Below are positions 5,101 through 53,334 of a stretch of 64,000 nucleotides of DNA, piece after piece. A program made the position numbers and the translations under genes. The notes below the pieces were generated by a model. The model saw only the letters and a program-made list of their open reading frames with translations. It had not been told where the DNA came from and made no database searches. Origin of the DNA: a virus (taxonomy: Duplodnaviria > Heunggongvirae > Uroviricota > Caudoviricetes); the IMG/VR virus record IMGVR_UViG_3300021255_000114, positions 231,942 through 295,941 of that record; one strand, 5' to 3'. Every line of letters starts with the position of its first letter. The first letter of the stretch is position 1.

Positions 5101-5301
5101 TTAATCCGTTTCTTTGTCATCCAAAATGGCGCGTAAATTACATAACGGTACGTTCGCAAACATTGTTTTCAAGGGTCCTTCAGTATAGACGACAACGGCA
5201 CTGCCATCAGGACCGAAGTGCATGACTTTGCCGTTGTATGTGTTCTTTGCACCAATTTTGTTTTCAACTATAACCTGAACGTTTATTCCATTTCTTTCCA
5301 T
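5101..5301 (-). CDS. hypothetical small protein
   Basis: 66-aa ORF. Confidence 0.35.
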   Translation of the reverse strand: MERNGINVQVIVENKIGAKNTYNGKVMHFGPDGSAVVVYTEGPLKTMFANVPLCNLRAILDDKETD

Positions 5302-19042: not shown

Positions 19043-20373
19043 TTTTTTCTTATCTTTTTTAAAATGTTTAAAATATCTTTAATAATACTTTTACTATTAT
19101 ATTTTATATAAAATAGCGGAACATTATTTATTTCACATTTATATTTTTTGTTTTCGTCTAATTCAATAATATGTTTATATCTATTAAACGCCCATTCATA
19201 TCCATAGCCGGCAAAATCTACCGGAAAATAATGTTGTTCACCTTGACACTCAATTGCAATGTTATATTCTGGTAAATAAAAGTCAAGATGTTGCAATTCT
19301 AACCATGGTAAATGTTTACTTGTGGCAGGATGAATAAATTTAATTAATAGTTTATTAAGTAATAATGAGGTTGTTTCTTCTAATTGCGATTGTCTACACT
19401 TAGGACAGCCCTGTTTTCTTTTGGTGTGATGGTATGGTGTTTGCCAGAATTCTCCGTGTTCCGGACAGATAATACATACAGGTATATCTGTGTTTATGTA
19501 TTTTACTTTGGAGTAATCATACCTGTCTCCGTGGACTTTTCGCGCCTTTTCCATAAACTCTTCTTTACTTAACTTACGATTCCCATAACAATCTGGGCAA
19601 CCTTTACCTTTTAGATGGTTCGAAGGTGTTTGACAGAACTCACCATGTTCCGGACAGATAATACAAACTTTAGTTTTAACATTTACATAATCAGTTTTTG
19701 AATAATCATATCTGTCTCCATGTACTTTACGTGCTTTCTCAATAAATTCTTCGGTGTTTGATCGGTTTGTGCCTGCACATTTTGGACATCCGTTTCCATG
19801 TAAATGTAACCCTAATTGTTGTATAAAATCTCCGTGTATCGGGCAAGTTATGATAATTTTATCTTTAGCCTTTGCTTCCGTTACTTTATTATAGTTATAT
19901 TTACCACCGTGTGTTTTAACACATCTTTTAATTATTTCTTCTTTTGTTAAAACATATCTTTCACTAGTTTTCTCTAAAGCGCATTTTGGGCATCCGTTTC
20001 CATTTAAATGCGAATTCGGGGTTTGTAGAAAATCTCCGTGTTTTTTGCAAATAATAGTTAACTTTTTGTTGGTTAGAGAATAATTTGCTTTTGAATAGTC
20101 ATACTTATCTCCATGCACTTTTTTAGCTTTTTCAATGAATTCATCATTAGATAATGAACGTTTTGATGATTGTACAATACGAGAACAATTAGGACAACCT
20201 TTACCTTTTAAATGATCAGCAGGTCTTTGCCAGAATTCTCCATGTTCCGGACAGATGATACAAACCTTAGTATGATTGTTAACATAGTTTACATTACCGT
20301 AATCATATTTATTCCCGTGTACTTTTCTACTTTTCTCTTCAAAATTTCTGTTTTTATTACATTGTTCGCACAT
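19039..20373 (-). CDS. zinc-ribbon repeat protein (about six DUF4379-like units) with a C-terminal restriction-endonuclease-fold (D..ExQ) domain
   Basis: Repeated unit KVCIICPEHGEF.Q.P..HLKGKGCP.C. C-terminal FDFYLPEYNIAIECQGEQHY. Paralog of 1..1262. Confidence 0.7.
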   Translation of the reverse strand: MCEQCNKNRNFEEKSRKVHGNKYDYGNVNYVNNHTKVCIICPEHGEFWQRPADHLKGKGCPNCSRIVQSSKRSLSNDEFIEKAKKVHGDKYDYSKANYSLTNKKLTIICKKHGDFLQTPNSHLNGNGCPKCALEKTSERYVLTKEEIIKRCVKTHGGKYNYNKVTEAKAKDKIIITCPIHGDFIQQLGLHLHGNGCPKCAGTNRSNTEEFIEKARKVHGDRYDYSKTDYVNVKTKVCIICPEHGEFCQTPSNHLKGKGCPDCYGNRKLSKEEFMEKARKVHGDRYDYSKVKYINTDIPVCIICPEHGEFWQTPYHHTKRKQGCPKCRQSQLEETTSLLLNKLLIKFIHPATSKHLPWLELQHLDFYLPEYNIAIECQGEQHYFPVDFAGYGYEWAFNRYKHIIELDENKKYKCEINNVPLFYIKYNSKSIIKDILNILKKIRKK

Positions 20374-20610: not shown

Positions 20611-22116
20611 TTAGAAATCTGGATGCAAACGATTACGGATTTCGGTAAGTGATTGTTCCTGAACCATTTTACCATCTTTGAAGTAGAGTATGTAAGCCGA
20701 ATCCTCACCATGAAGAGGTTCGCGTTCCGTTGGGTCAATTCCATCAGCAAATTTAAACATACCCGTTTCAGGGTCATTCCAAACTTCACAGCACCCACGC
20801 TGACTTTTTTTGAACGAAAAACCGGATTCACGATCAGTCTTTGGATCTTTAAAAATTGGATAGAATTTCCCATCAACAATACCTCCAGTTGCTTTAATTG
20901 CGATTGAAAAAGTGTCACGAGTTAATGGATGGAAACAATTATTAGTATCTTTATAACACGTAAAACTAAATGAACCGGCACCGAAGTATATGTTATTTGC
21001 GGCAAAGCCTTCAAGCATTAAACGTTTATATATGGTAGCAGAAATGCTCGGTAATACTCCGTCCCCGTAAACCACACCAATATGCGGGTCAAGGACTTTA
21101 TAACCCTTGGTATTGACGGTTCCACCAAAGATATTCCAAAGCGATTCAACGGTCTTAACTGAAATATCGATAATATCACCACTATCGGGACGGATAAGCA
21201 GTTTGCCGTTATGGGCAAGGATTTCGTCTTTAAGCGACGGAATAATATCATTCACCATTCGCCAATAATCGTAAGTATCTGATACCATGGAGAATGAAGC
21301 ATTTGGATATACTTCTGTAAGAAGGCGTTTCACCATTGCCCGTTCATCACCTGTAATGGCGAAGTCAGCGGCCATAACACTGTGCTCAGTACTGATAGCG
21401 TTTGTAGCAAAATTATTCTCGCTGTTATTCTCGTTATAGTAGTGTTCGATGTATTTGACGGCGGGAATAGTAGCTGTTCCGCTGAATGAAGCAAGCCATG
21501 CGGCTGAAGCCTTCTCAGCCTCCTGAAGCGAACTCATGCCACGGAAACCGAAATCGGAAATGGCTTTGCTATGCGGAACATTATCGTCCACTGTTTTACC
21601 GTACCATTCATCAACAACATCACGGTAGATATTACCTACGGTGGCATGGATGCAGGGTTTCCAGAGTTCAGACGACAAAAGGCTCTCCACCCACTGTACA
21701 ACCCAGGCGAAATCAGGGTGCGTGTTCGTAATTTCGATGCACGGGATACCCATGTTTACAACGGAACCCTCAGGTAATGCGCGGATTTCAAGCGGCAGAT
21801 AACCTAAGCGATGCAGATCACGTACTTTTTCAGGGTTGTAATTACCCGCGCCGAACATGCTATCAACCACACGGGTGTACTCTTCCATCATTTCATCCTC
21901 AGGGACGCTGAAGAAATTCTCGTTGAAATGGTCGATAAGGTATTTCTTGATGAATCCCTGCAAACCGAAAAAGACCATCTTGTCCAACTCAGGTATACGG
22001 TTTCTGCGAGGGGTGAAATAAGACCAAAGTTTAGTCAAACCTTTTGGGTACTGTTCCGCATGGGTTTGCTTGTAACCGTCTGACAATAAGAGACTTATAG
22101 TTTCGTGATTTTTCAT
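20611..22116 (-). CDS. nadV: nicotinamide phosphoribosyltransferase (Nampt)
   Basis: SDGYKQTHAEQYP, DFGFRG, IRPDSGD, VYGDGV and YFGAGS align with human and bacterial Nampt. Confidence 0.9.
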   Translation of the reverse strand: MKNHETISLLLSDGYKQTHAEQYPKGLTKLWSYFTPRRNRIPELDKMVFFGLQGFIKKYLIDHFNENFFSVPEDEMMEEYTRVVDSMFGAGNYNPEKVRDLHRLGYLPLEIRALPEGSVVNMGIPCIEITNTHPDFAWVVQWVESLLSSELWKPCIHATVGNIYRDVVDEWYGKTVDDNVPHSKAISDFGFRGMSSLQEAEKASAAWLASFSGTATIPAVKYIEHYYNENNSENNFATNAISTEHSVMAADFAITGDERAMVKRLLTEVYPNASFSMVSDTYDYWRMVNDIIPSLKDEILAHNGKLLIRPDSGDIIDISVKTVESLWNIFGGTVNTKGYKVLDPHIGVVYGDGVLPSISATIYKRLMLEGFAANNIYFGAGSFSFTCYKDTNNCFHPLTRDTFSIAIKATGGIVDGKFYPIFKDPKTDRESGFSFKKSQRGCCEVWNDPETGMFKFADGIDPTEREPLHGEDSAYILYFKDGKMVQEQSLTEIRNRLHPDF

Positions 22117-24394: not shown

Positions 24395-25234
24395 TTATTC
24401 GGAAGAAATGTTTGAAATTTTTTTAAGAAAATCCTTTTTTACCTCTTTTTCCGTAAACTGACCGGCCGGTGATACCACCCATTTATTACGTTCAAACGTA
24501 CCGTATTCAGGTGATTCCAATTGAATTTTCTGTTTATAGCATACACGACCGAATTTCAACCCATCATCATATTCATACCAATTGATATTGCATTTGTCAA
24601 GTAGGAGTTGCACTTGTTCATCACTGTGTTTGCTCACTAGTTCCTTATGGGGAAGGTATGTTTGCGCCGCCTGTTGTTTGGAATTGCGGATGCAGTCCAA
24701 CTGGCGATATAGGAACCAAGCATACGCATCGTTCTCGTTAGGCACATTCCATGCCTTGCAGTCGAATTCATACAGCGGAGCATTCTCAAGTGTATCAATC
24801 GCCATATCAAGGATATCGTTACCGGGAAGAGAATCAGGAATCTTCTCGAGTCTGTTCGCAGTCATAATGTTGGTGAATTTGGTTGCGGCCATTGATGCGA
24901 CAATAGACTGAATTTTGCATAATCTGTATCCGAAAAATGATGTGACCTCGGAATTTTCGTCTTTCGGAATATCGGATACGACAAGTGAAATCTCGTCACT
25001 TTGACAATAGCCGAACTTGCACCCTTGTACATTGGCACACAGGTATTGCATTGTCTCGTTCATTGCCTCGACGAACTTCTTGTCGAACGGTTTTTCGAAT
25101 TTGTTCTTGATTTTCCTTGAGAAATTCTTTCCATCGACCATTATACAAATATAACTGTTAGGTTCAAGCCTGTGGTCTGATGCCGAACGGAGTCGTTCGC
25201 ATTTCTGTTTAAGTGTTTCCTCTATTTTTTGCAT
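24395..25234 (-). CDS. Thg1-like protein (tRNA-His guanylyltransferase family, 3'-5' polymerase)
   Basis: IMVDGKNFSRK...KPFD compares with Thg1 VVRLDGRNFHRF...KPND, and YCQSDEISLV with YGQSDEYSFV. Confidence 0.75.
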   Translation of the reverse strand: MQKIEETLKQKCERLRSASDHRLEPNSYICIMVDGKNFSRKIKNKFEKPFDKKFVEAMNETMQYLCANVQGCKFGYCQSDEISLVVSDIPKDENSEVTSFFGYRLCKIQSIVASMAATKFTNIMTANRLEKIPDSLPGNDILDMAIDTLENAPLYEFDCKAWNVPNENDAYAWFLYRQLDCIRNSKQQAAQTYLPHKELVSKHSDEQVQLLLDKCNINWYEYDDGLKFGRVCYKQKIQLESPEYGTFERNKWVVSPAGQFTEKEVKKDFLKKISNISSE

Positions 25235-25914: not shown

Positions 25915-27105
25915 TTACTTGAATAATTTGATGTTCGATTCGTTTGAATCGTTGTAGTAGAAATTCTTGAAATGTATGTCGAAACAACTCGATATCATCG
26001 TCATTGCTGACTGCATCCCATATGGTTGCGTTAGGTCAACGGTTTCGGTAAAGCATCCGTTATACATTTCCAGAAATCCATGATTAATAGCCACATCCAT
26101 ATGAGTGACAACAAGGTTGAAATCAGCAAGACCTTTCTTGTCGATATAGTCTAACCTATGGCGGTCAACGGCCCGCTCGAACAAACGACGCTCCAACTGG
26201 CCGACTTTGAAATTCCCCTGGTATTCATTGAATACATTGGTTTCGTGTTTGTCCGATAAATCATAAGTTAACGGTGCCTGAGGAATATATCCGTTTCCGT
26301 GCCGTGTAAGATATGTACGGGTAACCATATAGACTTCAGGCTTGATATTAAACTCATAGTGCTCCATGAACTCAAGCGGATTCTCAAGGCCGACCGGTGT
26401 GGCTGTCACATTCGGGAAAAAGCCGTCCTTGGCGTCAAGCAGCAATCCTTGTGTACCCTCAAAGATAACCACGTCATGTGACCTAATCTCGTCAATCATC
26501 ATTAGGCGATTTTTCCATACCTTATAGAACTTAGCGTTGCAGGCCTCAACATACATCCTCTCAAGCTCGGGATTGCGCTCCATTCCATAGTAATCACATA
26601 CGCTTTGGAACTGTTTCTCCTTGTGCTTGTACGTCAGAAATTGCGAGAAGGTATATAGGAAATAGTCGCTTGACATGTGGCGTTTCTTGCATGCCCACAC
26701 CCCCTTGCCACATGTCCCGTCCTTTAACGCAGATTCATCATTACGGTTTGAAATCACATCATATGGGGTAATGCATTCGATGTAGTCCGCAATATTGATA
26801 AGCGGTACACTATCCATCTTTGTTTGAAGAACCTTATATTCATTGTATGCACAGATAGGGTCAAAAAGAGAACCGTAGATATAATACGTCGGAACCCCCA
26901 ACAGGACACCACTCCCATACGAAGAACAGATGTGTTCAACCCCGTCGTTTACAACCGTGTGCGCAGCCTGAGGCCCCCCACAATAACGCACAACACACAC
27001 CGACTTGCCTTTCTCGATGGCCTCTCTGCAAAGCCATTGCACTGTCACTCCCTTACCTTCATCGCCAAATAAAGACCCGATTACTATTTTAACCTCTTTT
27101 TCCAT
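25915..27105 (-). CDS. adenylosuccinate synthetase family protein (PurA or PurZ-like)
   Basis: GSLFGDEGKGV reads as the PurA P-loop, and RYCGGPQAAHTV compares with the canonical RYQGGHNAGHT block. Confidence 0.8.
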   Translation of the reverse strand: MEKEVKIVIGSLFGDEGKGVTVQWLCREAIEKGKSVCVVRYCGGPQAAHTVVNDGVEHICSSYGSGVLLGVPTYYIYGSLFDPICAYNEYKVLQTKMDSVPLINIADYIECITPYDVISNRNDESALKDGTCGKGVWACKKRHMSSDYFLYTFSQFLTYKHKEKQFQSVCDYYGMERNPELERMYVEACNAKFYKVWKNRLMMIDEIRSHDVVIFEGTQGLLLDAKDGFFPNVTATPVGLENPLEFMEHYEFNIKPEVYMVTRTYLTRHGNGYIPQAPLTYDLSDKHETNVFNEYQGNFKVGQLERRLFERAVDRHRLDYIDKKGLADFNLVVTHMDVAINHGFLEMYNGCFTETVDLTQPYGMQSAMTMISSCFDIHFKNFYYNDSNESNIKLFK

Positions 27106-30773: not shown

Positions 30774-31487
30774 TTATAGTGTGAAAAGCCTTTCGGTTGC
30801 CAATTTTGTTTTGTGAGGGTTCTGTGCGGTCTTGACATCCATCTGCCATATGCATTTGAAATCATCGGGCATTTCGTATTCGGAAACAAATATTGTGTGC
30901 CCCTCTTGCTTCTTCTCCCTACACCACTGATAGAACCTCCCATAATCGAAATTCTTGCTCGTCACATACTGCTTTGTGTTCTTATATGGCGGGTCGCAGT
31001 AGATAATGGACTCCTTTGGTATCAGTAATTCATCGTAGTTTTCTGCATAGAACTCGGTTCCGCGCAGGAATGGCACCTGAGCCAACGTGTTTTTGATATT
31101 CTCTCCGATATAGTCTCTCCCCTTGACATCGTGTCCCGAATAGCCGCCGTCGAAAAACCTTCCATTGAAAGAACCCATGAATCCGACCCATCCTATAATG
31201 TAGTCAGGGTATCGTCCGTCTTTTTTGTTGTAACTGTCTCTGACGTCGTTGTAGAAATTACGCATGATGAGTCTTGGGACATCCGGGTCGTCGTGACACA
31301 ACTCTTTCCACATGGCAATGAGGTATCTGTTATTGTCGCTTGCCATTCTGTACCCTTTGACGTGTTCGAGAACGCTGCAACTGCCGCAGAATGGCTCAAC
31401 CCAATACTGTTGAGCGTCTTTTCTTTCCGCGAGCATTATTGGAAGGATATACTTTACGTATCTTCGCTTGTTTCCCTGATATTTCAT
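30774..31487 (-). CDS. dam: DNA N6-adenine methyltransferase (Dam/D12 class)
   Basis: WVEPFCGSCSV reads as the FxGxG AdoMet-binding loop, and IIYCDPPY supplies the DPPY motif. Confidence 0.8.
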   Translation of the reverse strand: MKYQGNKRRYVKYILPIMLAERKDAQQYWVEPFCGSCSVLEHVKGYRMASDNNRYLIAMWKELCHDDPDVPRLIMRNFYNDVRDSYNKKDGRYPDYIIGWVGFMGSFNGRFFDGGYSGHDVKGRDYIGENIKNTLAQVPFLRGTEFYAENYDELLIPKESIIYCDPPYKNTKQYVTSKNFDYGRFYQWCREKKQEGHTIFVSEYEMPDDFKCIWQMDVKTAQNPHKTKLATERLFTL

Positions 31488-34582: not shown

Positions 34583-36862
34583 TTATTTTTTCATTAATCC
34601 GTGTTCGGGGTCATAGGCATAAAGGCATGTTATAAAGGGTGTTTCGCTTGACAAAGCAAGTCTCCAGTACATATCAAACAATTTCGACCATCTTGGTCCC
34701 TGTTTGTTTTTTCTGTACCCTCTCGCAGATTTGTGACGGTATTTTTCTTGAAGTTCCGGGTGTTTATCTATATAATCATACATATACCGTGTTTCTCCAT
34801 CCCTAAACAGATTCTCGTCCAAATAATTGGCTATGATTGGTTCCTTCATCCTATCAGCAATTATGAAACGTTGGTTGTTTGGGTTTCCTCTTAAAGTTTG
34901 CCTTTGACTTATCCGCTTAATGTTATCGTCGCCCTTTGATGAATACAGGTATACCATATTGTGCAGGACCTTCTGTGATTCTTTTTTGCATTCATCGCTG
35001 TATTTTTCATATTCTTTTTTATAGGACGAATCATTGTATATCGCTTCGAACAAGGCAACTATTTCCGATTCATTATATACTTTTTCAAACACAACATTCT
35101 CCATGAACAACCGACGTCCAAGTAAACACAAACCGTGGTTGTATTTAGCGCGAACAGCCGCATACTCCGAGTTGTCAAAACCGAGCTTTTTGTTCGTGTC
35201 AAACGGGAGTATGTATATGTTGGCCACTTTTTCTCCACCCCAACGGTTAACACGCCCCAAACCCTGTTGGAATTCGTGCATCGGAAGATAGGCATCAGTA
35301 TAGAAATTATTCGCTGATATATCATGGCCGGTGGTTACCAGGTTTGTACAAACCATCACACCTTCTTCATTCCTGTTTTTTGAGAAATGGCGATACATAT
35401 CGGTAATATGCTTATTCATATCATGAGTGGTGTAATTGCTATGGCATAGCACGGTATTATTTTTGGTGTTTTTGGCTTTAACACCGTCATAGAGTTTTTG
35501 GGACGTTTTTACACCGTTAACCATTGCGATGGAATTATTCTCCATAGACAAATCAAACGTCTCGAGTTGATGGAAGATATAACGTTTATCCTGCGCACCT
35601 TTATAATGCCTCGGCTCAGTGTATACATGCCTTTTAAATGATTTATACAAGAGCGATTGCGGTGTTGCGCTGCAAAGTATTGTTTTTGCATTATAGTTTA
35701 ACCTTGACAAATTCATTAATTGGAATGCGCGATTACACCCGCTTCTATCCATATATGTATGATATTCGTCAAAAGCAACCGTACGGACCATAACCTCGAA
35801 GGCCATTTCCTTCATGTCATTGTCCCTTATAAAGGGATTGAAGAAATTATCTATGTTTGTGACGATTATATCGTTGTTAACATTATCCTTCAATCCTTGA
35901 ACCCAACCTCCTCCTTTTTTATAATATAAACCTAGTGTTATCTTAATATTATACACTTTTAAAAGATTGGCCAATGAACCATAAAGCGCATCACAAAGGT
36001 TGTCTGTGGGGCAGACGAACATCGCCTTTTTACCTATGGCAAGTACACTACGAAGCAGGATGTCGGTTTTCCCGAATCCGGTATTCTCGTTTATTTCGAA
36101 TATGTGAAAATTGGAATTGGCAATTTTTCCCACATATTCGCTTTGAATATTGAAACGGTATGAATCATATCCGTCGGGCTTTTGTATGTCGGAAACACCA
36201 AAAGTAACAGGCAGTTTCAAACCATTGTCCATAAATGTATCGTCAATGATGTAATCCCGGTCCGATTTTGCAATTAAAGCAAACAGCGTTTGATACGGCA
36301 CATCCTTTATATCACTTTTCGCAACATCATCCTGAAACAGATACAAGCATTCGTCTGAAAAGGTGGTGTCAGTTTCTGAGATATTATTTACCTCCAACTG
36401 GAAATCGGGATTCTTCCTATTGTTGATTTCAACCAATTCATGTATAACAGGCAATATTGCAGATTCCTCGGTCTTTATTTTTTTAAGTGCCGAATCAATC
36501 TTGAACGACAACCCGCAATAAGGATGATGTCCCAACAACACTCGCATGACCGTGGAATACATCAACCTGACTGAATTCATCTGCGCATAATCACAATTGG
36601 CCTTTGGTTTTATGTAAAGCCAAAATATCAAGGCACTTGAAACATTGTGCAGCACCTCAGGTGTTTCATCGTTTTTCAAATAAGCCTGAAACTCGTTCAT
36701 TATCTTTCCAAGGTCATGGAACAATCCTACCGTATATGCACATTTACGCCACGTTTCATTGGTAATATATTTTCCCGCAAGGAATTTGCAGTTGTCAGCA
36801 ACCGTTGTGGAATGCTCCATAAACGATATAACCGGCTTTGTTTTTGCTATCAGTTCTTTCAT
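34583..36862 (-). CDS. cas3: Cas3 HD nuclease-helicase
   Basis: HD-domain residues MEHS...LFHDLGK...GHH. Helicase Walker A NTGFGKTD. DExH box AFDEYHTY. Motif VI QQGLGRVNR. Confidence 0.85.
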   Translation of the reverse strand: MKELIAKTKPVISFMEHSTTVADNCKFLAGKYITNETWRKCAYTVGLFHDLGKIMNEFQAYLKNDETPEVLHNVSSALIFWLYIKPKANCDYAQMNSVRLMYSTVMRVLLGHHPYCGLSFKIDSALKKIKTEESAILPVIHELVEINNRKNPDFQLEVNNISETDTTFSDECLYLFQDDVAKSDIKDVPYQTLFALIAKSDRDYIIDDTFMDNGLKLPVTFGVSDIQKPDGYDSYRFNIQSEYVGKIANSNFHIFEINENTGFGKTDILLRSVLAIGKKAMFVCPTDNLCDALYGSLANLLKVYNIKITLGLYYKKGGGWVQGLKDNVNNDIIVTNIDNFFNPFIRDNDMKEMAFEVMVRTVAFDEYHTYMDRSGCNRAFQLMNLSRLNYNAKTILCSATPQSLLYKSFKRHVYTEPRHYKGAQDKRYIFHQLETFDLSMENNSIAMVNGVKTSQKLYDGVKAKNTKNNTVLCHSNYTTHDMNKHITDMYRHFSKNRNEEGVMVCTNLVTTGHDISANNFYTDAYLPMHEFQQGLGRVNRWGGEKVANIYILPFDTNKKLGFDNSEYAAVRAKYNHGLCLLGRRLFMENVVFEKVYNESEIVALFEAIYNDSSYKKEYEKYSDECKKESQKVLHNMVYLYSSKGDDNIKRISQRQTLRGNPNNQRFIIADRMKEPIIANYLDENLFRDGETRYMYDYIDKHPELQEKYRHKSARGYRKNKQGPRWSKLFDMYWRLALSSETPFITCLYAYDPEHGLMKK

Positions 36863-36901
36863 GGTGTAAATATACTATTTTGAATTGAAATATTGCTTGA
36901 A

Positions 36902-37660
36902 ATTTTTAATCAAATAAAATTATATTATTAAAGAGTAGTTGTTATCACTATGTAAAATGGTACGTAATTGTTAATCAATTGGAAATTATATTATTAAATA
37001 GTTGTATGCCCTACAAAGCATTGATTCCATAAAATTGTTAATTGAATAAAGATTGTATTATTAAAGAGTTGACTTGATAGCAATGATGACATCCCATAGA
37101 TTGTTAATCAATTAAAAATCATATTATTAAAGAGTCTCGTGTTGCTTCGTTCACTGCCTGGTCCCATTGTTAATCAAATAGAAATTATATTATTAAACAG
37201 TAGGCTGTGGTAGTTATGCCAATGGCAGTATATTGTTAATCAATTAAAAATCGTATTATTAAACAGTAATAACGGTGAACTTGTGGAAGCTGTAGAATTG
37301 TTAATCAATTAAAAATCGTATTATTAAACAGTCGGTGGGAAGATTTGGGGCGCGTTTCAAAATTGTTAATCAATTAAAAATCGTATTATTAAACAGTGTT
37401 AACGGTATAAGCGTTATATCATACGCATTGTTAATCAATTAAAAATCGTATTATTAAACAGTTCGCTTAATGAACAAATTCAATAAACTAAAATTGTTAA
37501 TCAATTAAAAATCGTATTATTAAACAGTGGTGCGCTTACCCTATGCAACTCCCTTCTTATTGTTAATCAATTAAAAATCGTATTATTAAACAGTTGTTAA
37601 CGGCATTTCCGTGATTAGTTACGCATTGTTAATCAATTAAAAATCGTATTATTAAACAGT
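36902..37660 (-). CRISPR. CRISPR array with 12 repeats of 36 bp (plus strand ATTGTTAATCAATTAAAAATCGTATTATTAAACAGT) and 11 spacers of 29-31 bp
   Basis: Seven perfect repeats (37232-37660) sit at the cas6-proximal end. Five progressively degenerate repeats (36902-37201) sit at the cas3-proximal end. A 62-bp AT-rich leader lies at 37661-37722. Read on the minus strand the repeat starts ACTGTTTAAT, which resembles type I-B repeats. Confidence 0.9.
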
Positions 37661-37722
37661 ACACTCCTTATAAAGCATTGTATTTATGTGCCTTACAAAG
37701 AGTTTTATATTTAAAAAATGCA

Positions 37723-38439
37723 TTAAACACCACCAAATGTGAATTTTTGAGTCATATTTTTCCTTTCTAATACTTCAATAGCGCCGAAACCGCTTCCGGT
37801 TGACCCCCCGATTCCAAGACTATAAAGAAGTTTTCTTGTCTTTGGCTTGCCATAAACCGTGGCAACAAACGATGTGCAAGGATTGAATACATCACCAACG
37901 AATATGTTTTTAACTTTAATATTCTCCGGTTTATTGAATTCAATTCTGAAAGTTTCATCAAGAATACCATTATTGGATAATTTCCTTTTGCAATGCTCAG
38001 TAAGCACTGTCTCCCATCCTTCATCACGGTATGTTATTTTCCTTCCGTCTTTTATAAGCAATACCGGTGACAAAGTCTTAATCACGTCATACGTTTTTCC
38101 CACCTTGCTATCGTCCTCGCACACTATATGTGTAACTCTTCTCCCGAATAAAACCTTGTTTTTACTATTGATGCTTTTGATAACCCCAGCAACAATTCGG
38201 TTGGTGATATCGTCCGAAGCACTTGAAACTTGGATATAAGGATTCATAACGGGTACAAGGCATTTCTTATCATTGGATGCTACAAGGCCCTGCAACCCTG
38301 AAATGGAATACGGGCTGAAACTCGAATGGATTCCTTCATCCCTATCAAACAGGTGGTTGTAGATGAAACCGTTTACTTCACGCTGATTCTTGAACGGGAT
38401 GCTATCCCCATCCTTTTCGAATATAATTTTAACTATCAT
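37723..38439 (-). CDS. cas6: Cas6 crRNA endoribonuclease
   Basis: 238 aa with the C-terminal glycine-rich loop GIGGSTGSGFG (GhGx5GhG), located directly next to the array leader. Confidence 0.8.
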   Translation of the reverse strand: MIVKIIFEKDGDSIPFKNQREVNGFIYNHLFDRDEGIHSSFSPYSISGLQGLVASNDKKCLVPVMNPYIQVSSASDDITNRIVAGVIKSINSKNKVLFGRRVTHIVCEDDSKVGKTYDVIKTLSPVLLIKDGRKITYRDEGWETVLTEHCKRKLSNNGILDETFRIEFNKPENIKVKNIFVGDVFNPCTSFVATVYGKPKTRKLLYSLGIGGSTGSGFGAIEVLERKNMTQKFTFGGV

Positions 38440-39529
38440 GTTTTATTGTTTCGTTTAGTTTGTCAAACACTTCGTTGTTGAACGTAGGAACGTCGGTGCA
38501 TACATAACGCATACTGCAATACCCATAACTCTCAATCTGATCTTCACTTAGTAAATCATATGGTAGCAGCACATCATCCACACCATATTCAGACCATTTA
38601 AGCACATCAACAATTCCACCCTCAAGGAACCTTGCGGTTTGCATGCCGGTAATAAATTGTTCCACATATTCCTCGTTTAGTTTGAATACGAATTCCCCGT
38701 TAAGGATTATGACTTTCTGTGGATAACCCTTCTCCGTCTTGATAAACGGGCCCGTGAGTTCAGAGCGGTAAGTTGTTCCGTTGACGAAATTCAATAGATT
38801 GGCATTTTTCAGATATTCCATCACCTTGACAGCGTTTACCTGCATCGCAGCCGAAATTGCAAACGTAAGCGTGGCATATTCTCTCGCATTCCGGCCGGTT
38901 ATTTCTGATATAAGCGAAACCAAACCATCCATTGCACCCTGTTTCTTTGAATTGCAACGAAGGTATCGCATATCAAACTGCTCCCAACAAACAGTGTCTA
39001 TGGAATTATTTGAAATCGTGCTATCATTGTTTGTTGCATGGTAATTCGCGAAATGCCCGTAAGACCACTTAACAACTTCGGTGTTCGGTCGTTTCAAACC
39101 GGTTTTACATGTGTGGAAATACGGGGCATACAATCCAACAAACCCATCAAGAACCATTTCGTCGATATCGGCATTTCTTTTGGCACCCTCCGGACCGTGA
39201 AACGTTGATACCGGTTTTTTCTGTAGCATTACGGCATACATATTGGATGCGGTATGAAGGGTGAAGGGATACAAAATATTCCCCTCCACCTTGTCCACAT
39301 CCTTCATATCATACCACAAAATTGAATCAGGTGAACATTTATCACGCATACCCTTCTCACCTGTGTATTTGTTATATACAATATCAAATTTATATGATTT
39401 AGGTTTAGATGATTTCTTTGGTTTATCTTCCGTTACCACATTGTTTTCATCCGATTCACGCTTCCTTATCTTATCATAATAAGGCAATTTGGCATTCTCA
39501 AACCTTAGTCTTACCCAATAATCATTCAT
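38429..39529 (-). CDS. putative Cascade subunit (Cas5/Cas7-family candidate)
   Basis: 366-aa gene in the cas operon, overlapping its neighbours by 4 and 11 nt. No diagnostic motif was recognised. Confidence 0.45.
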   Translation of the reverse strand: MNDYWVRLRFENAKLPYYDKIRKRESDENNVVTEDKPKKSSKPKSYKFDIVYNKYTGEKGMRDKCSPDSILWYDMKDVDKVEGNILYPFTLHTASNMYAVMLQKKPVSTFHGPEGAKRNADIDEMVLDGFVGLYAPYFHTCKTGLKRPNTEVVKWSYGHFANYHATNNDSTISNNSIDTVCWEQFDMRYLRCNSKKQGAMDGLVSLISEITGRNAREYATLTFAISAAMQVNAVKVMEYLKNANLLNFVNGTTYRSELTGPFIKTEKGYPQKVIILNGEFVFKLNEEYVEQFITGMQTARFLEGGIVDVLKWSEYGVDDVLLPYDLLSEDQIESYGYCSMRYVCTDVPTFNNEVFDKLNETIKHDS

Positions 39530-40536
39530 TTTTCCTTTTTATTGTTCTTAGCCTTTTTATTGGCTGTGTCGGAACATGCGTTGTTGTAAGGCGCGTAATC
39601 CTCAAGCGAAGCCTCGTTATAGAATTTCTTGTATTCAAAATTGATGCTCTCCACATCTTTCAATGTAATGTTCTCGAGCACATCCTTCGTGTTATCCTCG
39701 TAATGAATGATCAAGTCCATGCCAAGGAAATCAATCGACCCATTGCTATGACGTTCACCATTAAACATAATGAACTGCGACAGAATATATCTGACCTGTT
39801 GGTTAATCATATCGTCAGTCAGCATGAATGCCATATCGACTTCTTTGTTGCCGGTATGATTGCCAATCCTGTAATACGGTTTAATACAAGTCTTATCAAT
39901 CGAAGTGTTGAAATTCTTCGATAAACAAGTGAAATAATAGTCCATATCATTATCGTTCTTGAATTCAACAGCCATTTTTTGATGGCCGCCGTCAACGTAG
40001 ACAATCTGCATATCCGGGATGGAGAACATGAACCTGCCTTCATAGGTATATTCGCCAACATTCTCCACCGCATAGAGCGTGTTGTCTTTACCGGCGCCAT
40101 CGGTCTTTTTAATACCACTCATGGTTTTGGTTTCAAATGGAACGTGTTTAATGGGTTCCATATTGGCAACCAAAGGAAAGAGTTCATATCCTCCCTTTCG
40201 ATGACCCTCGTATGCAGAATCACCGTCTTGCTTAGTATAGAGGTAGCCCTTTGCAAGAATATAGGGGTCAGCCAAATGGCTTAAATACATTTCTCTGAAT
40301 TTCGTGCACTGATTGAATGTGCAACTCCCAAAAACAGCCTGATTGATTGCCTCGGCGCTGATCTTGTATTTGAAACCATCACCAACAAGCATTTTCTTAC
40401 AGTAGACTACGTTTTTATTAATGTTTTTTGTCCACTTGTAAACGTTTGCAGTATCACCGGCAAACTCGCCATCACAATTGAAAGCTCCACTGCCACTAAA
40501 TTTTACGCGGCCCTCAAGTTTAATTATTTTTTTCAT
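39526..40536 (-). CDS. putative Cascade backbone subunit (Cas7-like candidate)
   Basis: 336 aa with an ATGA overlap to the downstream gene, so likely translationally coupled. Confidence 0.45.
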   Translation of the reverse strand: MKKIIKLEGRVKFSGSGAFNCDGEFAGDTANVYKWTKNINKNVVYCKKMLVGDGFKYKISAEAINQAVFGSCTFNQCTKFREMYLSHLADPYILAKGYLYTKQDGDSAYEGHRKGGYELFPLVANMEPIKHVPFETKTMSGIKKTDGAGKDNTLYAVENVGEYTYEGRFMFSIPDMQIVYVDGGHQKMAVEFKNDNDMDYYFTCLSKNFNTSIDKTCIKPYYRIGNHTGNKEVDMAFMLTDDMINQQVRYILSQFIMFNGERHSNGSIDFLGMDLIIHYEDNTKDVLENITLKDVESINFEYKKFYNEASLEDYAPYNNACSDTANKKAKNNKKEK

Positions 40537-40555
40537 TTTTTATTTTTATTTACAT

Positions 40556-40948
40556 TTAATTCAATTGTTCGTACAGTTTCTTGTACATCTTATCCGGATC
40601 ATCCAACCATTCGTCGGCAATAATCTTTATCTTCTTGGTGATACCCAATTCGAGACTGCCTTTGAATGGTATATCATTCTCATCCAACAACAACCATTCG
40701 AAACAATTACTCACATAGGAATCAAATATGATATATTGAACCAAAACATATGGGATGCCAAATGAAATGCATTTCTTCTCGATGAGTTGCCTGTCAAACG
40801 AAACATCGTAGATATCAATACAGACTCCGGCAAAAACATCCCAAGAAAGACTCAATCTATGCAAATAACGTTCAACGAACTCCACAAGCATGTCATTAAC
40901 GGAAGGTCCCTCCCATCCTAAAAGTAAACTGTAATCCGTCTTTTTCAT
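40556..40948 (-). CDS. hypothetical protein in the cas operon (candidate small subunit)
   Basis: 130-aa ORF. Confidence 0.4.
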   Translation of the reverse strand: MKKTDYSLLLGWEGPSVNDMLVEFVERYLHRLSLSWDVFAGVCIDIYDVSFDRQLIEKKCISFGIPYVLVQYIIFDSYVSNCFEWLLLDENDIPFKGSLELGITKKIKIIADEWLDDPDKMYKKLYEQLN

Positions 40949-40975
40949 TTTTTTTTACAATTTAAAATTCCCTAT

Positions 40976-41401
40976 TCAATATTTGCATCTTTTAATCAAT
41001 ATTTTCTCTTCGTCGGTCGCATAACGATATGTATAGCCAGATTCATGCGTCAAGACCTCTGGTTCGCATTGAATAAAACCGCATCCACTGTTAATCATTA
41101 AGCATTTAGGCTTGAAATCCATTTCTCCTTTATAATCATCGGGCATGATAAAGAGTGCTGGAAAAACATCATCGTTTTCAAACGAATAAACAACATCACC
41201 CGGTTTAAAACCACATGGAGTATTAAAAACCTTCGCTTCAAAAACAGGAACAATTTTTCCATTCCCCTTTGGTTCAAACTGCTCAATATAAGGAATAATC
41301 TCCTTGGATGCGCTTTCACGTTTGGGATATTCAATCTTCGGGTCGTTAATGTATGCACAAACAATTTCGTGCAGAAGATTCCATTTTTCTCTTTCGTCCA
41401 T
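40976..41401 (-). CDS. hypothetical protein in the cas operon (candidate small subunit, Cas11-like position)
   Basis: Start reassigned to the internal Met so that TAA-C-ATG abuts the stop of the upstream gene. Confidence 0.4.
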   Translation of the reverse strand: MDEREKWNLLHEIVCAYINDPKIEYPKRESASKEIIPYIEQFEPKGNGKIVPVFEAKVFNTPCGFKPGDVVYSFENDDVFPALFIMPDDYKGEMDFKPKCLMINSGCGFIQCEPEVLTHESGYTYRYATDEEKILIKRCKY

Positions 41402-41402
41402 G

Positions 41403-42578
41403 TTATTCCTTTTTGTCATTAAAAAAACAACCGCCGCAATTCCGCAATTCGTGCTCGAAACAGGCACAATCAAATGTGGTGGTGTGTGCAAGAATAATCT
41501 TCATCTTTCCATCAACGTTGAATATGTAAGTATCAAAACAGCCGGAACCACTCATCATCGGACTGTCACCGGTATGTTGAACAAAACAACGGAATTCATC
41601 ACCATCACTTTTCCAATAATCAAGATAGATTTTCGGAGAACTCTCGATGGCATCTTCAAGTTCAATAGTATCTTTGATATGTTCAGGAGCCTCATTCCAC
41701 ACGTCATCGATGTCCTTGGTAGAACGCGCGATGTACTCCATATCACCCTTTGCAATGGCACACACCTTGGATGCAATATCACAAAACTGTTCTCTATAGT
41801 TGTTTTCCGTTATTACATCATCACTGGTAACTTCCCACTTGATGGGACACAAATCAACGGTGATTTCGTTAGTGTTGTTTGGCTTATTGCGAGTATCGAC
41901 TCTTATAATGAAATGGTTGGTAACCAGTGTGAAACTGCCTTCCTCTACAACCTCTGCACCGTTAACTTCCTTAATGTGTGCATTCATCAGGTCTGAATAC
42001 CCATCCCACAGTTCGTTGTCGAGGTCTTCAGGAGTAATCTTAATACCGTATCTTTCAAGGATTGCAGAAGCTTTTTTGAAATTATATCTGCTAACAAGAT
42101 AGTCAGCAAGCCTGTCCATGATTTCAAGCATAGGCATATTGAGAACTCCCTTGGCCTTTTCGGTGAGTTGTTCCACACTCATACTTCTGTTAAACACATG
42201 AGACATTATTGAATGCATCTTGACATTGTACTGCGGCGGCATAACATTGTAGTTGGGCAGCTCCTTGATGTAGTCACCAATACAGGTCATTGGGATATAG
42301 ACTGCGTAGGCAATCAAAATAGACCAAATTTCAGCAGTGATTGGATCATCATCCCAAGCGACCTTAGACCCACGTTCCTTTTTCACCTCAGGCGTTGCAT
42401 CGAGCCAGGCGTTGAATTGCTCGCGCATAAAGTTCAAAATGGACTTGGGAGAATAGAAGTCCCGATTCGGACAATCAAGATTGCAGACAACTTCCATATC
42501 ATGGATGAGGTTGCCTGAATGACGGTAGAAATTCTTTGCGTAGAGAATCTGATGGTTGTTTTTGATTTGATTTGGCAT
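41403..42578 (-). CDS. first gene of the cas operon (candidate large subunit, Cas8-like) with a C-terminal Cys cluster
   Basis: 391 aa; the C-terminal cluster reads CFDTY...DCACFEHELRNCGGCF. The conserved promoter lies 28 nt upstream. Confidence 0.45.
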   Translation of the reverse strand: MPNQIKNNHQILYAKNFYRHSGNLIHDMEVVCNLDCPNRDFYSPKSILNFMREQFNAWLDATPEVKKERGSKVAWDDDPITAEIWSILIAYAVYIPMTCIGDYIKELPNYNVMPPQYNVKMHSIMSHVFNRSMSVEQLTEKAKGVLNMPMLEIMDRLADYLVSRYNFKKASAILERYGIKITPEDLDNELWDGYSDLMNAHIKEVNGAEVVEEGSFTLVTNHFIIRVDTRNKPNNTNEITVDLCPIKWEVTSDDVITENNYREQFCDIASKVCAIAKGDMEYIARSTKDIDDVWNEAPEHIKDTIELEDAIESSPKIYLDYWKSDGDEFRCFVQHTGDSPMMSGSGCFDTYIFNVDGKMKIILAHTTTFDCACFEHELRNCGGCFFNDKKE

Positions 42579-50830: not shown

Positions 50831-51493
50831 TCACTTCTTGATATGTAACCCGTCATCCATGTCCTCCTCCTTGTCACCCCTCTTCCGTCTCTTCCTGTAA
50901 TCCATGTCATCATACAAATACCACTTGAACTTCTTCCACGCAGCCCAATTCTCCGTCACAATCTCCGACCACCGCCTAAGCAACTTGCACTGATCAGCAG
51001 TGTACACATCAGCCTTCCCTGACTCCACAAACAACCACTCCTTCGTGGCAGACAACCCGACAGTAGTCAATAGCCTGTATATGGACCCCCTCAACTCACC
51101 CATCCACTTGCGAAACTCCGGCGTGAACTTTATAAACCAAGTTATCTTCCCATAAGCACCCGTCCTCTTCGCATACCTCCACCCACTCTGACATTTCTCA
51201 TAAAACTCCTCACTGCAACAGTATTTCTTCGCCTCCTCCAACACACTCTCCTCAGTCCAATTGTCACGACGCATCCCCTCTAACCACGTGTACGACTCAA
51301 GCCACCCATTACGCTTCGCCTTGCGGTACGCCGCCTCTTCCGACTTGTAAAAATCCTTTAACGTCTTGTACCTCCGAGCCTCCGCCCGTACACGTGCCTC
51401 AGTCCAATAAGACACCCTGCCACACCTTCTGCTTTTCTTTGCCATTTTACAATATTTTCCCTTTCTCTCCTTACGGATAATGCCCCCAAACAT
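50831..51493 (-). CDS. basic repeat-containing protein (two WTE...Y(K/R)KAKR(N/T)G units)
   Basis: 220 aa, Lys/Arg-rich, with internal duplicated units. Confidence 0.5.
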   Translation of the reverse strand: MFGGIIRKERKGKYCKMAKKSRRCGRVSYWTEARVRAEARRYKTLKDFYKSEEAAYRKAKRNGWLESYTWLEGMRRDNWTEESVLEEAKKYCCSEEFYEKCQSGWRYAKRTGAYGKITWFIKFTPEFRKWMGELRGSIYRLLTTVGLSATKEWLFVESGKADVYTADQCKLLRRWSEIVTENWAAWKKFKWYLYDDMDYRKRRKRGDKEEDMDDGLHIKK

Positions 51494-51795
51494 AAAAACC
51501 CCACCACTAAAACACTACCCGAATTATTTTATTGATAAATACATTTAAAAATATTTTTGCGTATCACGTGGATTTCTAATTAGTTACACAACAGTGGAAA
51601 TTTTAGGCAAGATTTGGCAAATTTTGGGCGTTTTTGCAAGGATTGAATATCAGAGGGTTACGAGCGGCTACATTTCAGAAAGGTCTTAATCTCTAACCAA
51701 ATATCACAGAAAGAAATTGTCCCGTTTCTCCCTTCTCCATATCCGGAAAAAAAATTCCGGCAAAACATTCACCGGAAACTAACCCGCCATTTTAT

Positions 51796-51811
51796 TGTTT
51801 CACGTGAAACA
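51796..51811. promoter_or_regulatory. 16-bp perfect palindrome TGTTTCACGTGAAACA (operator-like)
   Basis: Lies inside a 365-bp non-coding region; a second copy is at 62767-62784. Confidence 0.4.
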
Positions 51812-51841
51812 TTGCCATAATATATTAATATACAATAAATT

Positions 51842-51857
51842 AGACACATTCGTGTCT
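51842..51857. promoter_or_regulatory. palindromic element AGACACATTCGTGTCT (one of five GACACnnnnGTGTC sites)
   Basis: Starts 2 nt after the stop codon of the upstream minus-strand gene. Confidence 0.4.
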
Positions 51858-51858
51858 T

Positions 51859-52111: not shown

Positions 52112-52384
52112 TTACTTGCGGTTTGTTTTGCGTGATGCTCGTTGTGTTCTTCTTGCCTTGTGCTTTTTGCGTTCGTGTTTTTTGGCCGGGGTTTGGTTTG
52201 TGCCGGTACGTTTTTTGTGTTGGGGTTCGGTGGCGTTGACCAAATTGTAGTAGTTCCACAGATCATCCGAGGAATGTTCTATGGTTTCCGGTTTGGGGAG
52301 TGCATCGTTTTCGGCCGTGCCGGTGATGCTTGCCAAATTCGTTTCTTTGCTATTCATATGATTTGTTTGTTTTTGATATTTCAA
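52112..52384 (-). CDS. hypothetical protein with a highly basic C-terminus
   Basis: Ends KKHERKKHKARRTQRASRKTNRK; the gene sits in a relatively GC-rich stretch. Confidence 0.45.
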   Translation of the reverse strand: MKYQKQTNHMNSKETNLASITGTAENDALPKPETIEHSSDDLWNYYNLVNATEPQHKKRTGTNQTPAKKHERKKHKARRTQRASRKTNRK

Positions 52385-52392
52385 ATATACTA

Positions 52393-52956
52393 TTAATTTT
52401 TCAATTTCTGCAATTTTTGGCTTAGCATTTTTCTAAGGGTTTCGATTTGGTTTTGTGTAAGGAGTGTTTCTGTCTTGAGTTTGGAGAGTTCGATAACGCT
52501 GCTTTCATATTCCTCATATGTTTTAAGCCCGTTTATCAGGTTTTGATAGTGTACCCAAGCCTTGCGTTTCTCCCCACGTGAGGGTTTACTGCCATTAGTG
52601 TCAGCGTTCGTTTTAGGGAAGTTTTCTTCCCTTTTAAGGAAGTTTTCTTCCCTTTTAAGGAAGTTTTCTTCCTCTTTTATCGACTCTTCATCATTAAGGA
52701 AGTTTTCTTCCCTTTTAGGGAAATTTTGTTCCTCTTTAGGGAAATTTATTTCCCCTTTTAATTTTTTGTTGATTGAGTTTCTGTGGTTGCTTACCTGCCG
52801 TATGGTTATATTCATAATGGAGGCGATATCCTCTCTGAGGATTTTGGGATATTGTGTTTCTATTGCCATAAGGAATTTTTCCTCCAATGTGAACCGTTTA
52901 TCCTGCAATATGTCATATGGAATGTGCAGGTCCGTGATAACGTAATTTCTATGCAT
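52393..52956 (-). CDS. HTH DNA-binding protein containing REENFLK heptad repeats encoded by the iteron array
   Basis: HTH-like ILREDIASIMNITIRQVSNHRNS, followed by six 7-aa repeats. Confidence 0.55.
   Translation of the reverse strand: MHRNYVITDLHIPYDILQDKRFTLEEKFLMAIETQYPKILREDIASIMNITIRQVSNHRNSINKKLKGEINFPKEEQNFPKREENFLNDEESIKEEENFLKREENFLKREENFPKTNADTNGSKPSRGEKRKAWVHYQNLINGLKTYEEYESSVIELSKLKTETLLTQNQIETLRKMLSQKLQKLKN
52615..52758. repeat. six tandem 21-bp iterons (AAGGAAGTTTTCTTCCCTTTT, each with a GGAAG/CTTCC inverted core) inside the coding region
   Basis: Direct tandem repeats at 21-bp (two helical turns) spacing, with an 18-bp spacer after the third copy. Confidence 0.7.
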
Positions 52957-52985
52957 GTCTTCAATGGTTTATCTACACATAGATA

Positions 52986-53027
52986 TAAGGAAGTTTTCTT
53001 CCCTTTTAAGGAAGTTTATTTCCTTCA
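52986..53027. repeat. two further iteron copies in the 5' UTR of the HTH gene
   Basis: The same 21-mer occurs twice between the promoter -7 box (53032-53041) and the ATG at 52956. Confidence 0.65.
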
Positions 53028-53041
53028 ATATTGCAAAGATA
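53022..53041 (-). promoter_or_regulatory. conserved phage promoter copy
   Basis: ttcaatattgcaaagatact. Confidence 0.5.
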
Positions 53042-53089
53042 CTGTTTATTTTGTTTGGGGTGTAATGCCGGCATGTTAAAGTGTGTTAT

Positions 53090-53105
53090 TTAGACACAAT
53101 CGTGT
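53090..53105. promoter_or_regulatory. palindromic element AGACACAATCGTGTCT
   Basis: Second of five GACACnnnnGTGTC sites. Confidence 0.4.
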
Positions 53106-53124
53106 CTTTATGGGGGATGTGGTG

Positions 53125-53334
53125 TCAGACTTCGCCCGCGCCGATTGATATTGCTTCCAATTCCCCGTTGAACGAGACGATTTTTTCGATTCCGTTCGGT
53201 TGGAAGTATGCCATTTCGTCAATTATTCCGGGTGCGTCGATATTTTCTATCATAACGGGTTTGTCACCGCTGCCGGGGTTGTCGTCCCTGAATTTGACAA
53301 GGAGTTCAATGAATTGGTTTAAGGATGTTTCCAT
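53125..53334 (-). CDS. hypothetical small protein
   Basis: 69-aa ORF. Confidence 0.4.
   Translation of the reverse strand: METSLNQFIELLVKFRDDNPGSGDKPVMIENIDAPGIIDEMAYFQPNGIEKIVSFNGELEAISIGAGEV

Follow-up and report, generated by a model that had tools for sequence, protein, structure and literature searches.

The 64-kb window analysed here (the whole 64,000-nucleotide stretch taken from IMG/VR record IMGVR_UViG_3300021255_000114) looks like part of a large phage, with nearly all of its genes on the minus strand. One of these genes encodes a 187-residue protein with an N-terminal helix-turn-helix (HTH) domain, and short dyad-symmetric repeats occupy both the middle of this gene and the interval between its promoter and its start codon (Table 1; ATG at 52954-52956, minus strand). 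Tandem Repeats Finder reported 7.3 copies of a 21-bp period at 52611-52761, and repeat and pattern searches resolved six units inside the open reading frame (ORF), divided into two blocks by 18 bp of non-repeat sequence. On the gene strand the unit is AAGGGAAGAAAACTTCCTTAA, with a GGAAG-AAAA-CTTCC dyad core (GGAAGTTTTCTTCC on the plus strand), and the core consensus of the units in the window is GGAAG-N4-CTTCC; the two in-gene units closest to the 5' end of the gene deviate (GGAACAAAATTTCC and GGAAATAAATTTCC on the gene strand). With up to three mismatches allowed, the 21-mer had five matches in the window versus none in 100 dinucleotide-preserving shuffles, and no further good copy of the site occurs elsewhere in the 64 kb or in 8-20 kb of related loci. 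These searches bear out a preliminary description of this DNA, made from the letters alone, which had reported six tandem 21-bp repeats inside the ORF, two further copies between promoter and ATG, and a peptide repeat, REENFLK, that is more fully written as (R/E)EENF(L/P)K.

Within the in-gene array, A4 tracts are spaced every 10-11 bp, and the helical phase coherence of AA/TT over the array is non-significant (0.25 versus 0.15 ± 0.08, with 12.6% of random segments as high). Among loci that carry this site, defined below as type A, the unit variants GAAAAC, ATAAAC and ATAAAT are found in coding and non-coding copies alike. A ninth, weaker dyad, GGAGGAAAAATTCC, lies at +71 from the ATG within the HTH-coding part, where it encodes LEEKFL; it is kept in type A relatives, its register differs from that of both arrays, and it may be either a coding-sequence coincidence or a genuine additional site.

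About 17 near-identical promoters (TATCTTTGnnnnGTTGAA) are present in the window on the gene strand, usually 32-40 nt before an ATG. For the primary sigma factor of Bacteroidota, the -7 consensus is TAnnTTTG (PMC7366714), and the stereotyped window promoter, TATCTTTG(c/t)nn(t/c)GTTGAA, is this known consensus extended by a conserved downstream GTTGAA element, often with AAATTTGCC at about -33 (minus-strand examples at 63367, 62732, 62013, 60780, 55212, 53041, 50186, 42613 and 34528). The HTH gene has such a promoter, in which ATTGAA corresponds to the phage-wide GTTGAA; its -7 box, placed at 53032-53041 in the preliminary description, is corrected to 53034-53041. At 85 nt, the leader of this gene is the sole long leader in the window and is close to the standard length plus two whole 21-bp units, the first of which adjoins the ATTGAA element. 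As the upstream copies start at the predicted transcription start, they probably form an operator for autorepression, and this geometry lends plausibility to the autorepression that had been predicted from their position.

An AlphaFold2 model built on a 17-sequence alignment places a helical HTH domain at residues 10-67 (predicted local distance difference test (pLDDT) ~90) and three helices at the C-terminus (pLDDT 64-76), separated by a low-confidence segment at residues 70-123 (pLDDT <50 at 70-89 and 106-123) that is exactly the repeat region and is predicted to be a disordered linker. The earlier identification of the product as an HTH protein holds: in addition to the model, Foldseek gave local matches to EsrB, DosR, NarL and GerE (template modelling scores to the target of 0.6-0.76, with non-significant E-values) as well as local matches to LuxR and sigma region 4 domains, and Pfam GerE was matched weakly by the window protein (E 0.011, 15.7 bits versus a cut-off of 23.5) and in 13 of the 17 members overall (best E 0.0015). 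PF13730 (HTH_36) was matched by 4 of 17 members, all of them the type B relatives described below (best E 1.3e-6). Among PHROG profiles, 'replication initiation protein' gave weak matches in 4 of 16 members alongside matches to different HTH families, phrog_678 ('replication initiation O-like') gave a weak match in one member only (E 7.7e-4), and the small terminase subunit gave a weak match in one of 16 (E 1.8e-4) among scattered generic HTH matches. Taken together, Pfam, NCBIfam, PHROGs and PADLOC returned only sub-threshold or scattered HTH matches for the family, PDB sequence searches returned no match, and Foldseek against PDB and BFVD found nothing beyond local HTH matches; for the C-terminal domain, the same PDB and Foldseek searches gave neither a sequence nor a fold match.

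The protein has 16 homologues, all of them metagenomic. No near relatives were found by megablast of 6 kb against GenBank phages, by tblastn of the window protein and of protein P0018 against the same phages, or, at close range, in IMG/VR and GTDB genomes, and a scan of metagenome contigs yielded only two loci, which are near-identical. The family alignment shows three domain combinations: a type A N-terminal domain with the repeat EENFPK and a type 1 C-terminal domain, as in the window; the same N-terminal domain and repeat with a type 2 C-terminal domain; and a type B N-terminal domain (PF13730) with the repeat TDTVVTDTDDSPS and a type 1 C-terminal domain that is 89-92% identical at the protein level to that of the window. 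The type A HTH domain is always found together with site A, GGAA(G/A)N4(C/T)TTCC, whose units lie at fixed offsets of -88, -67 and -46 from the ATG and, inside the gene, at +203, +224, +245 and onward. A comparison of copy number across relatives, which had been proposed as a check, gave upstream/in-gene counts of 2/6, 3/3 and 3/2; proteins whose remaining sequence is 85-99% identical thus have 2, 3 or 6 in-gene copies, and linker length differs by 28 aa among close relatives. These changes are in whole units, and the distances to promoter and ATG are preserved. Type B loci instead have four or six in-gene copies of CTGACA-N4-TG(T/A)CA(G/C), with neither site A nor upstream copies.

A sliding nucleotide comparison between the window and the type B locus L006 (Table 1) showed that identity rises from 25-50% to 90-100% at about 52601. 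The low identity of the leader, HTH domain and array between near-identical flanks indicates that these elements form a cassette of about 410 bp that was swapped in one piece. At the 3' edge of this cassette, the window retains a single remnant of the site B dyad, which is present in 4-6 copies in place of site A in type B relatives. There is no clear co-variation between the type of C-terminal domain and the downstream gene d1.

The upstream copies are restricted to the type A lineage of the window and are absent from type B and from distant lineages, some of which have no promoter of their own before the HTH gene. In locus L005 (9870-10000), three operator copies are present and a segment of about 45 bp that bears the gene's own -7 box is missing, so the HTH gene must there be transcribed from an upstream promoter; the operator copies have been retained despite this loss. 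Relatives that lack upstream operator copies have a leader of about 175 nt (L001 9826-10000, L006 8168-8346 and L016 4440-4575) in which a core, AAGGCTTCCTTTGGTCA.CGGT...CCCATCGGAGGCC, is conserved and long-range pairings stay complementary through two-sided changes (for example ataccgcac/gtgcggtat, ggatcgcac/gtgcgatcc and gaccgcgca/tgcgcgatc). On the basis of these three sequences, this leader is a candidate structured regulatory RNA; a search of the window, L001 and L006 against Rfam returned no known RNA.

A HMMER profile search of 1.84 billion representative proteins gave only 30 matches, 11 of which are further full-length members of 135-195 aa. The family spans about 12 lineages and is otherwise unannotated, and every full-length relative has a tandem repeat at the same position in the linker. 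The repeated peptide is different in each lineage, examples being SDKNVT (x7-8), KVNCSSPS (x3), KNSVKYDT (x4), SPLYET (x4), TQICT (x4), SAEIR (x4) and SDTDVTP (x3). DNA was retrieved for five distant lineages, which makes seven with types A and B, and in each of the seven the unit has a dyad-symmetric core of its own: GGAAG-N4-CTTCC in type A, CTGACA-N4-TGTCAG in type B, and GTGTCA-AAAT-TGACAC, AGTGACA-AAAA-TGTCACT, GGTGAAC-TGTA-GTTCACC, GAGTCT-N8-AGACTC and CACA-AA-TGTG in the distant lineages. The arrays start 175-203 nt past the ATG in every case, and up to 20 kb of flanking DNA in the distant lineages contains no extra copy. Measured against random window segments, the dyad symmetry has per-lineage P values of 0.0016 to 0.25 and a Fisher-combined value of ~4e-5. 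The helix RTIWRAKAK is found in both type B and P0018, which both have a TGACA half-site, and other helices accompany other sites; recognition helix and half-site therefore appear to co-vary.

Since the peptides differ by lineage while the position and dyad symmetry persist, these comparisons identify the repeats as DNA sites that co-evolve with the HTH domain, with the encoded peptide as a passenger. Action at the DNA level is also indicated by the variants shared between coding and non-coding copies, by the predicted disorder of the linker and by the variation in copy number among near-identical proteins. Across the sampled lineages, it is the in-gene array that defines the family, and the promoter-proximal copies are a type A addition. 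It is very probable that the 21-bp units are bound by the HTH domain of the protein whose gene holds them, with each GGAAG-N4-CTTCC dyad probably bound by a dimer. Leader, HTH domain and array would then constitute a self-contained specificity cassette that recombination can move whole before a separately conserved C-terminal domain.

For the function of the array, we favour an initiator with embedded iterons because published systems, namely lambda O and the pSK41/pPR9 Rep proteins, share this anatomy. By analogy with these systems, we give about an even chance to the array being the iterons of a replication origin and the protein being its origin-binding initiator or organiser. Several dimers would come together on the phased, A-tract-rich array, the next replication factor would be recruited by the helical C-terminal domain, and in the lineage of the window a build-up of the protein would shut off its own synthesis through the two to three extra copies at the transcription start.

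The resemblance to lambda O/ori had been raised in the preliminary description. The lambda origin has four iterons (six in Stx phages, which adds 13 aa), each of them an intrinsically bent, imperfect inverted repeat of 19 bp, and the array is followed by an AT-rich tract (PMC7466680). The parallel in layout stands: in both systems the iterons are imperfect inverted repeats with A-tract bending and lie in the middle of the gene of their own binding protein, encoding an interdomain linker, here between the HTH and C-terminal domains. Iteron number varies in lambdoids as well (4 or 6), which alters protein length, and the gene is transcribed through the site (PMC7466680). Also in keeping with this layout are the DNA-level sites tied to an HTH protein, the family-wide occurrence of the arrays and the joint exchange of HTH domain and array. 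Homology does not stand, as the protein described here has no sequence similarity to lambda O. Its array also has no adjoining AT-rich tract, and there is no P-like loader downstream; lambda, in turn, lacks promoter iterons, and O has 299 aa compared with 187 aa here.

The plasmid Rep proteins provide a parallel for the cassette swap. pSK41 Rep uses its N-terminal domain to bind four Rep boxes in the centre of rep, the origin-encoded central domain is a dispensable linker, and the C-terminal domain binds DnaG (PMC5703833). In pPR9, a stretch of about 500 bp that covers the N-terminal domain and origin has been replaced by a phage-type PF13730 HTH, with a C-terminal domain >97% identical to that of pSK41; this replicon is functional and can coexist with pSK41, with which it is compatible (PMC5703833). 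PF13730 is also found in Rep proteins of Paracoccus plasmids (PMC3832669) and in replication-region proteins of Stx phages (PMC8951638). The family described here shares with pSK41/pPR9 an N-terminal DNA-binding domain, a separately conserved C-terminal domain and a linker encoded by sites in the centre of the gene, which is dispensable in pSK41 and variable here, where dispensability is inferred. In both cases, N-terminal domain and sites are exchanged as a block of ~0.4-0.5 kb with the C-terminal domain and upstream control region near-identical, and the type B relatives match the same Pfam family as the pPR9 N-terminal domain. The differences are that no RepA_N domain is present here, that the N-terminal domain of the window protein is GerE/LuxR-like and not PF13730, and that the protein is about half the size, with a 60-aa helical C-terminal domain that has no detectable relationship to the DnaG-binding domain of pSK41. 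Furthermore, pSK41/pPR9 are Firmicutes plasmids and the present DNA is from a Bacteroidota-type phage in which a replication role of the protein is putative, and control in pSK41 is by antisense RNA, whereas here it is apparently by operator copies, or by a structured leader in other lineages.

Two further systems resemble parts of the locus. P1 RepA (incC/incA) and F RepE have two clusters of one site, one of which overlaps the initiator's own promoter and leads to autorepression, while the second lies a few hundred bp away, outside the coding sequence; both initiators have Rep_3 winged-helix domains. The two clusters, one at the gene's own promoter and the other a few hundred bp away, are shared with the window, but here the second cluster is inside the coding sequence and no Rep_3 domain was detected. 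LuxR/GerE (NarL-type) regulators apparently share the fold class of the N-terminal domain, and they have in common with the present system palindromic sites of the type bound by dimers and a promoter-placed site, represented here by the two dyads between the -7 box and ATG. They differ in that the Pfam match here is below the cut-off, the HTH is N-terminal and has no accompanying receiver or ligand-binding domain, the array is within the protein's own gene, and no site is found at other window promoters.

A series of results weighs against an origin. Comparison of family alignment A4 with lambda O by hhalign gave a probability of 0.2% and E 0.27, with no match to Pfam Phage_rep_O or NCBIfam, and the family has no match to RepA_N or Rep_3; by sequence the protein is outside the lambda O and RepA_N families, yet it is built like both. 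Family members are small (135-195 aa), and the N-terminal domain of the window protein resembles the HTH of LuxR/GerE-type transcription factors. No AT-rich unwinding element lies next to the array, the only nearby 40-mers with >=85% A+T being at 52356-52418 (~200 bp away, in the promoter of the next gene) and 51516-51566. DnaA boxes are not enriched, with 29 near-matches scattered over the window and no clustering at the locus. Genes for a polymerase, primase, replicative helicase or loader were found neither in the 64-kb window nor, in relatives, within 10 kb, and the downstream genes d1 and d2 are tiny, belong to no known family and include no P-like loader. Given the lack of lambda O homology, of an adjoining AT-rich element, of enriched DnaA boxes and of neighbouring replication genes, origin function is not established.

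GC skew, which had been named as a check, was followed at the scale of the window. A step is present on the plus strand at 51.5-51.9 kb, where skew changes from -0.5 to +0.3 with no change of coding strand. It is also seen on the coding strand at third codon positions (GC3 from -0.28 to +0.19 and AT3 from +0.26 to -0.24), is conserved in five close loci and has the pattern expected on the flanks of a bidirectional origin. Against this, the G/T-rich phase extends for only ~8.5 kb and the cumulative curve turns down beyond 60 kb, and the step does not follow the gene in distant relatives, being 4 kb away from it in L014 and a single gene long in L015. From this last behaviour the step is taken to be a property of the downstream gene block, and for all three reasons it was set aside as evidence for an origin.

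The fold matches to LuxR/GerE and sigma region 4, a kind of domain that transcription factors typically have, and the upstream copies located exactly at the promoter would also suit a purely transcriptional regulator of early genes. Its in-gene array would act as a roadblock or looping partner that halts RNA polymerase, limiting the protein's own synthesis as well as read-through into d1, d2 and the next block. For several distant lineages in which the gene has no promoter of its own, an internal site would be the sole route of feedback; moreover, the locus is the last in a series of small genes of early type and is closely followed by the conserved regulatory gap and the compositional boundary, and no replication genes were found nearby. 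However, the sole sites in 64 kb lie in or before the gene itself, which leaves such a regulator nothing else to control, and feedback would need no more than an upstream operator, yet what the family has in common is the in-gene array. The swap that retains the C-terminal domain mirrors the escape of pPR9 from incompatibility, and the internal-site arrangement is documented for initiators, whereas we know of no described regulator family with an operator array inside its own coding sequence. A purely transcriptional role is therefore the less probable reading, but one that has to be taken seriously. It is also unlikely, though worth stating, that the protein represents an undescribed, non-initiator design in which an operator array in its own coding sequence stalls RNA polymerase and times the passage from the early block (52-64 kb) to the block beyond the gap, with the cassette swap avoiding cross-regulation of co-infecting relatives.

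The small terminases of P22 (gene 3), SPP1 (gene 1) and P1 (pacA) combine an N-terminal HTH with a helical part for oligomerisation, and their pac site lies within their own gene, as it also does in Sf6. This plan resembles that of the protein described here, one member of the family has the weak small terminase match noted above, and the sites are found nowhere else in the window or related loci, next to a conserved non-coding gap and compositional boundary that could mark a landmark of the genome. A small terminase subunit with an internal pac site, or otherwise a centromere-binding protein or the protein of an injection-stop site, is nevertheless improbable: no large terminase or structural gene adjoins the gene in the window or any related locus, there is no partner of the ParA, ParM or TubZ type, the surrounding genes are small, of early type and driven by host-type promoters, and the terminase match is confined to one of 16 members amid scattered generic HTH matches. 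Least probable is a constraint on the peptide or on messenger RNA hairpins, with the upstream copies as a by-product of duplication: in the transcript, each dyad would fold into a hairpin whose stem has 4-8 bp, both arms change together in the variant GGAAA....TTTCC and tandem repeats can grow by slippage without function, but mismatched-arm variants (GGAAATAAACTTCC and GGAACAAAATTTCC) show that pairing is not strictly kept, the peptides are wholly different between lineages and sit in a linker of predicted disorder and variable length, the non-coding copies keep fixed offsets from promoter and ATG and change by whole units, and the type of site switches along with the HTH domain.

If the embedded array is indeed an origin, it would provide the first concrete candidate for an origin and its initiator in large uncultured gut phages with Bacteroidota-type promoters and no GenBank relatives. 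It would also mean that the plan of embedding an origin in the linker of its initiator, and exchanging it along with the DNA-binding domain, evolved once more in a family with no relationship to lambda O or RepA_N. Independently of function, the seven or more naturally matched pairs of HTH domain and dyad site make a compact data set on how recognition specificity changes, and the locus is a practical marker for typing these phages and predicting their mutual compatibility.

Table 1. Positions in the window of the HTH gene, its repeats and control elements, the comparison with locus L006, neighbouring features and other genes mentioned in the text.
Feature	Position	Strand	Description
Modular protein gene, 187 aa	52393-52956	-	HTH ~10-67, repeat linker ~68-123, three-helix C-terminal domain ~127-186; from ORF list, AlphaFold2 and family alignments
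N-terminal HTH coding region (type A)	52756-52956	-	Proposed reader of GGAAG-N4-CTTCC sites
In-gene array	52615-52758		Six 21-bp units, 3 + 3 flanking an 18-bp insert
In-gene dyad cores	52617-52630, 52638-52651, 52659-52672, 52698-52711, 52719-52732, 52740-52753		
Promoter-proximal copies	52989-53023		Two cores, 52989-53002 and 53010-53023, between promoter and ATG; same unit as in-gene
Ninth, weaker dyad	52868-52885		
Palindrome TATCTA-CACA-TAGATA	52970-52985		Between operator copies and ATG; sequence kept in type A relatives
HTH-gene promoter	53024-53041	-	-7 box TATCTTTG (reverse complement of 53034-53041) and ATTGAA element 53024-53029
Site B remnant	52589-52604		Single copy, CTGACACTAATGGCAG on the gene strand
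Window versus L006, promoter region	53015-53133		82-95% nucleotide identity
Window versus L006, leader, HTH domain and array	52602-53014		25-50% identity
Window versus L006, site B remnant and C-terminal domain	52363-52601		90-100% identity
d1, 81 aa	52112-52357	-	Acidic variable N-terminal part, highly conserved basic tail RTGTNQTPAKK.ERKKRKAR.VQRASRKTNRK; own -7 box 52382-52389
d2, 83 aa	51859-52110	-	Kept in most relatives; no family match
Conserved non-coding gap	51446-51858		Invariant blocks AGACACGAATGTGTCT (51842-51857), GTTTCACGTGAAAC (51797-51810), ACGGGACAAT, TTAAGAC, and CCAAAA tracts phased 10-11 bp (~51598-51640); -7 box of next gene 51487-51494; alignment A2, five loci
RNA ligases (two)	15124-16119 and 5283-5963		
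Radical-SAM-like protein	5960-7546		
GmrSD_N/NsnA-like protein	13289-13936		
NAD synthase	18176-19042		
HNH endonuclease	19039-20373		
Nicotinamide phosphoribosyltransferase	20611-22116		
Thg1-like tRNA-His guanylyltransferase	24395-25234		
Adenylosuccinate-synthetase-like protein	25915-27105		PHROG '2-aminooxy adenylosuccinate synthetase', E 6e-40
Dam-type methyltransferase	30774-31487		
CRISPR-Cas system	34583-42578		Cas3 34583-36862; CRISPR array 36900-37669; Cas6b 37723-38439; four further genes 38429-42578

The surroundings of the HTH gene contain all of the items that the preliminary description had listed there, namely a non-coding stretch, CACGTG and GACAC palindromes and a very basic small protein. 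The last of these, d1, is linked to the HTH gene in most lineages, and its homologues are found only in this phage group and are unannotated. It also has a W-x-Y-x-N-(M/L)-V motif, and its arginine-rich tail makes nucleic-acid binding possible, perhaps on recurring hairpins. The non-coding gap, where the compositional step also falls, covers 51494-51858 if the next gene uses its first possible ATG and 51446-51858 if it uses the likelier start at 51445, and is 400-590 bp long in relatives. CACGTG occurs at 51285, 51391, 51565, 51801 and 52575, which puts five of the ten copies in the window within 1.3 kb.

AGACAC-N4-GTGTCT palindromes lie at 51842-51857 and 53092-53107. The palindrome AGACACGA(A/T)TGTGTCT is also present near 55.9, 57.5 and 61.4 kb and is conserved in every related locus (L001-L016). 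Its copies coincide with, or closely follow, early-gene stop codons, with the next promoter typically ~55 nt further on, and they are limited to the early block and the beginning of the gap. A terminator or processing hairpin lacking a U-tract is one possible role, and a protein-binding site another.

Elsewhere, the window contains no tRNA genes, and a type IX secretion sorting domain was identified in one of its proteins. Auxiliary genes are clustered at 5283-27105 and include two RNA ligases, a radical-SAM-like protein, an HNH endonuclease and enzymes such as NAD synthase and nicotinamide phosphoribosyltransferase, and a Dam-type methyltransferase gene is also present in the window (Table 1). 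The window also carries a CRISPR-Cas system, with a Cas3 protein of 759 aa that has HD nuclease and helicase parts (PADLOC, E down to 3e-34) and a Cas6b (E 5e-28). In its CRISPR array, a 36-nt repeat, ATTGTTAATCAATTAAAAATCGTATTATTAAACAGT, is present 12 times with spacers of ~30 nt between the copies, which degenerate toward 36900, and the four genes of this system that have no family match may encode the effector complex.

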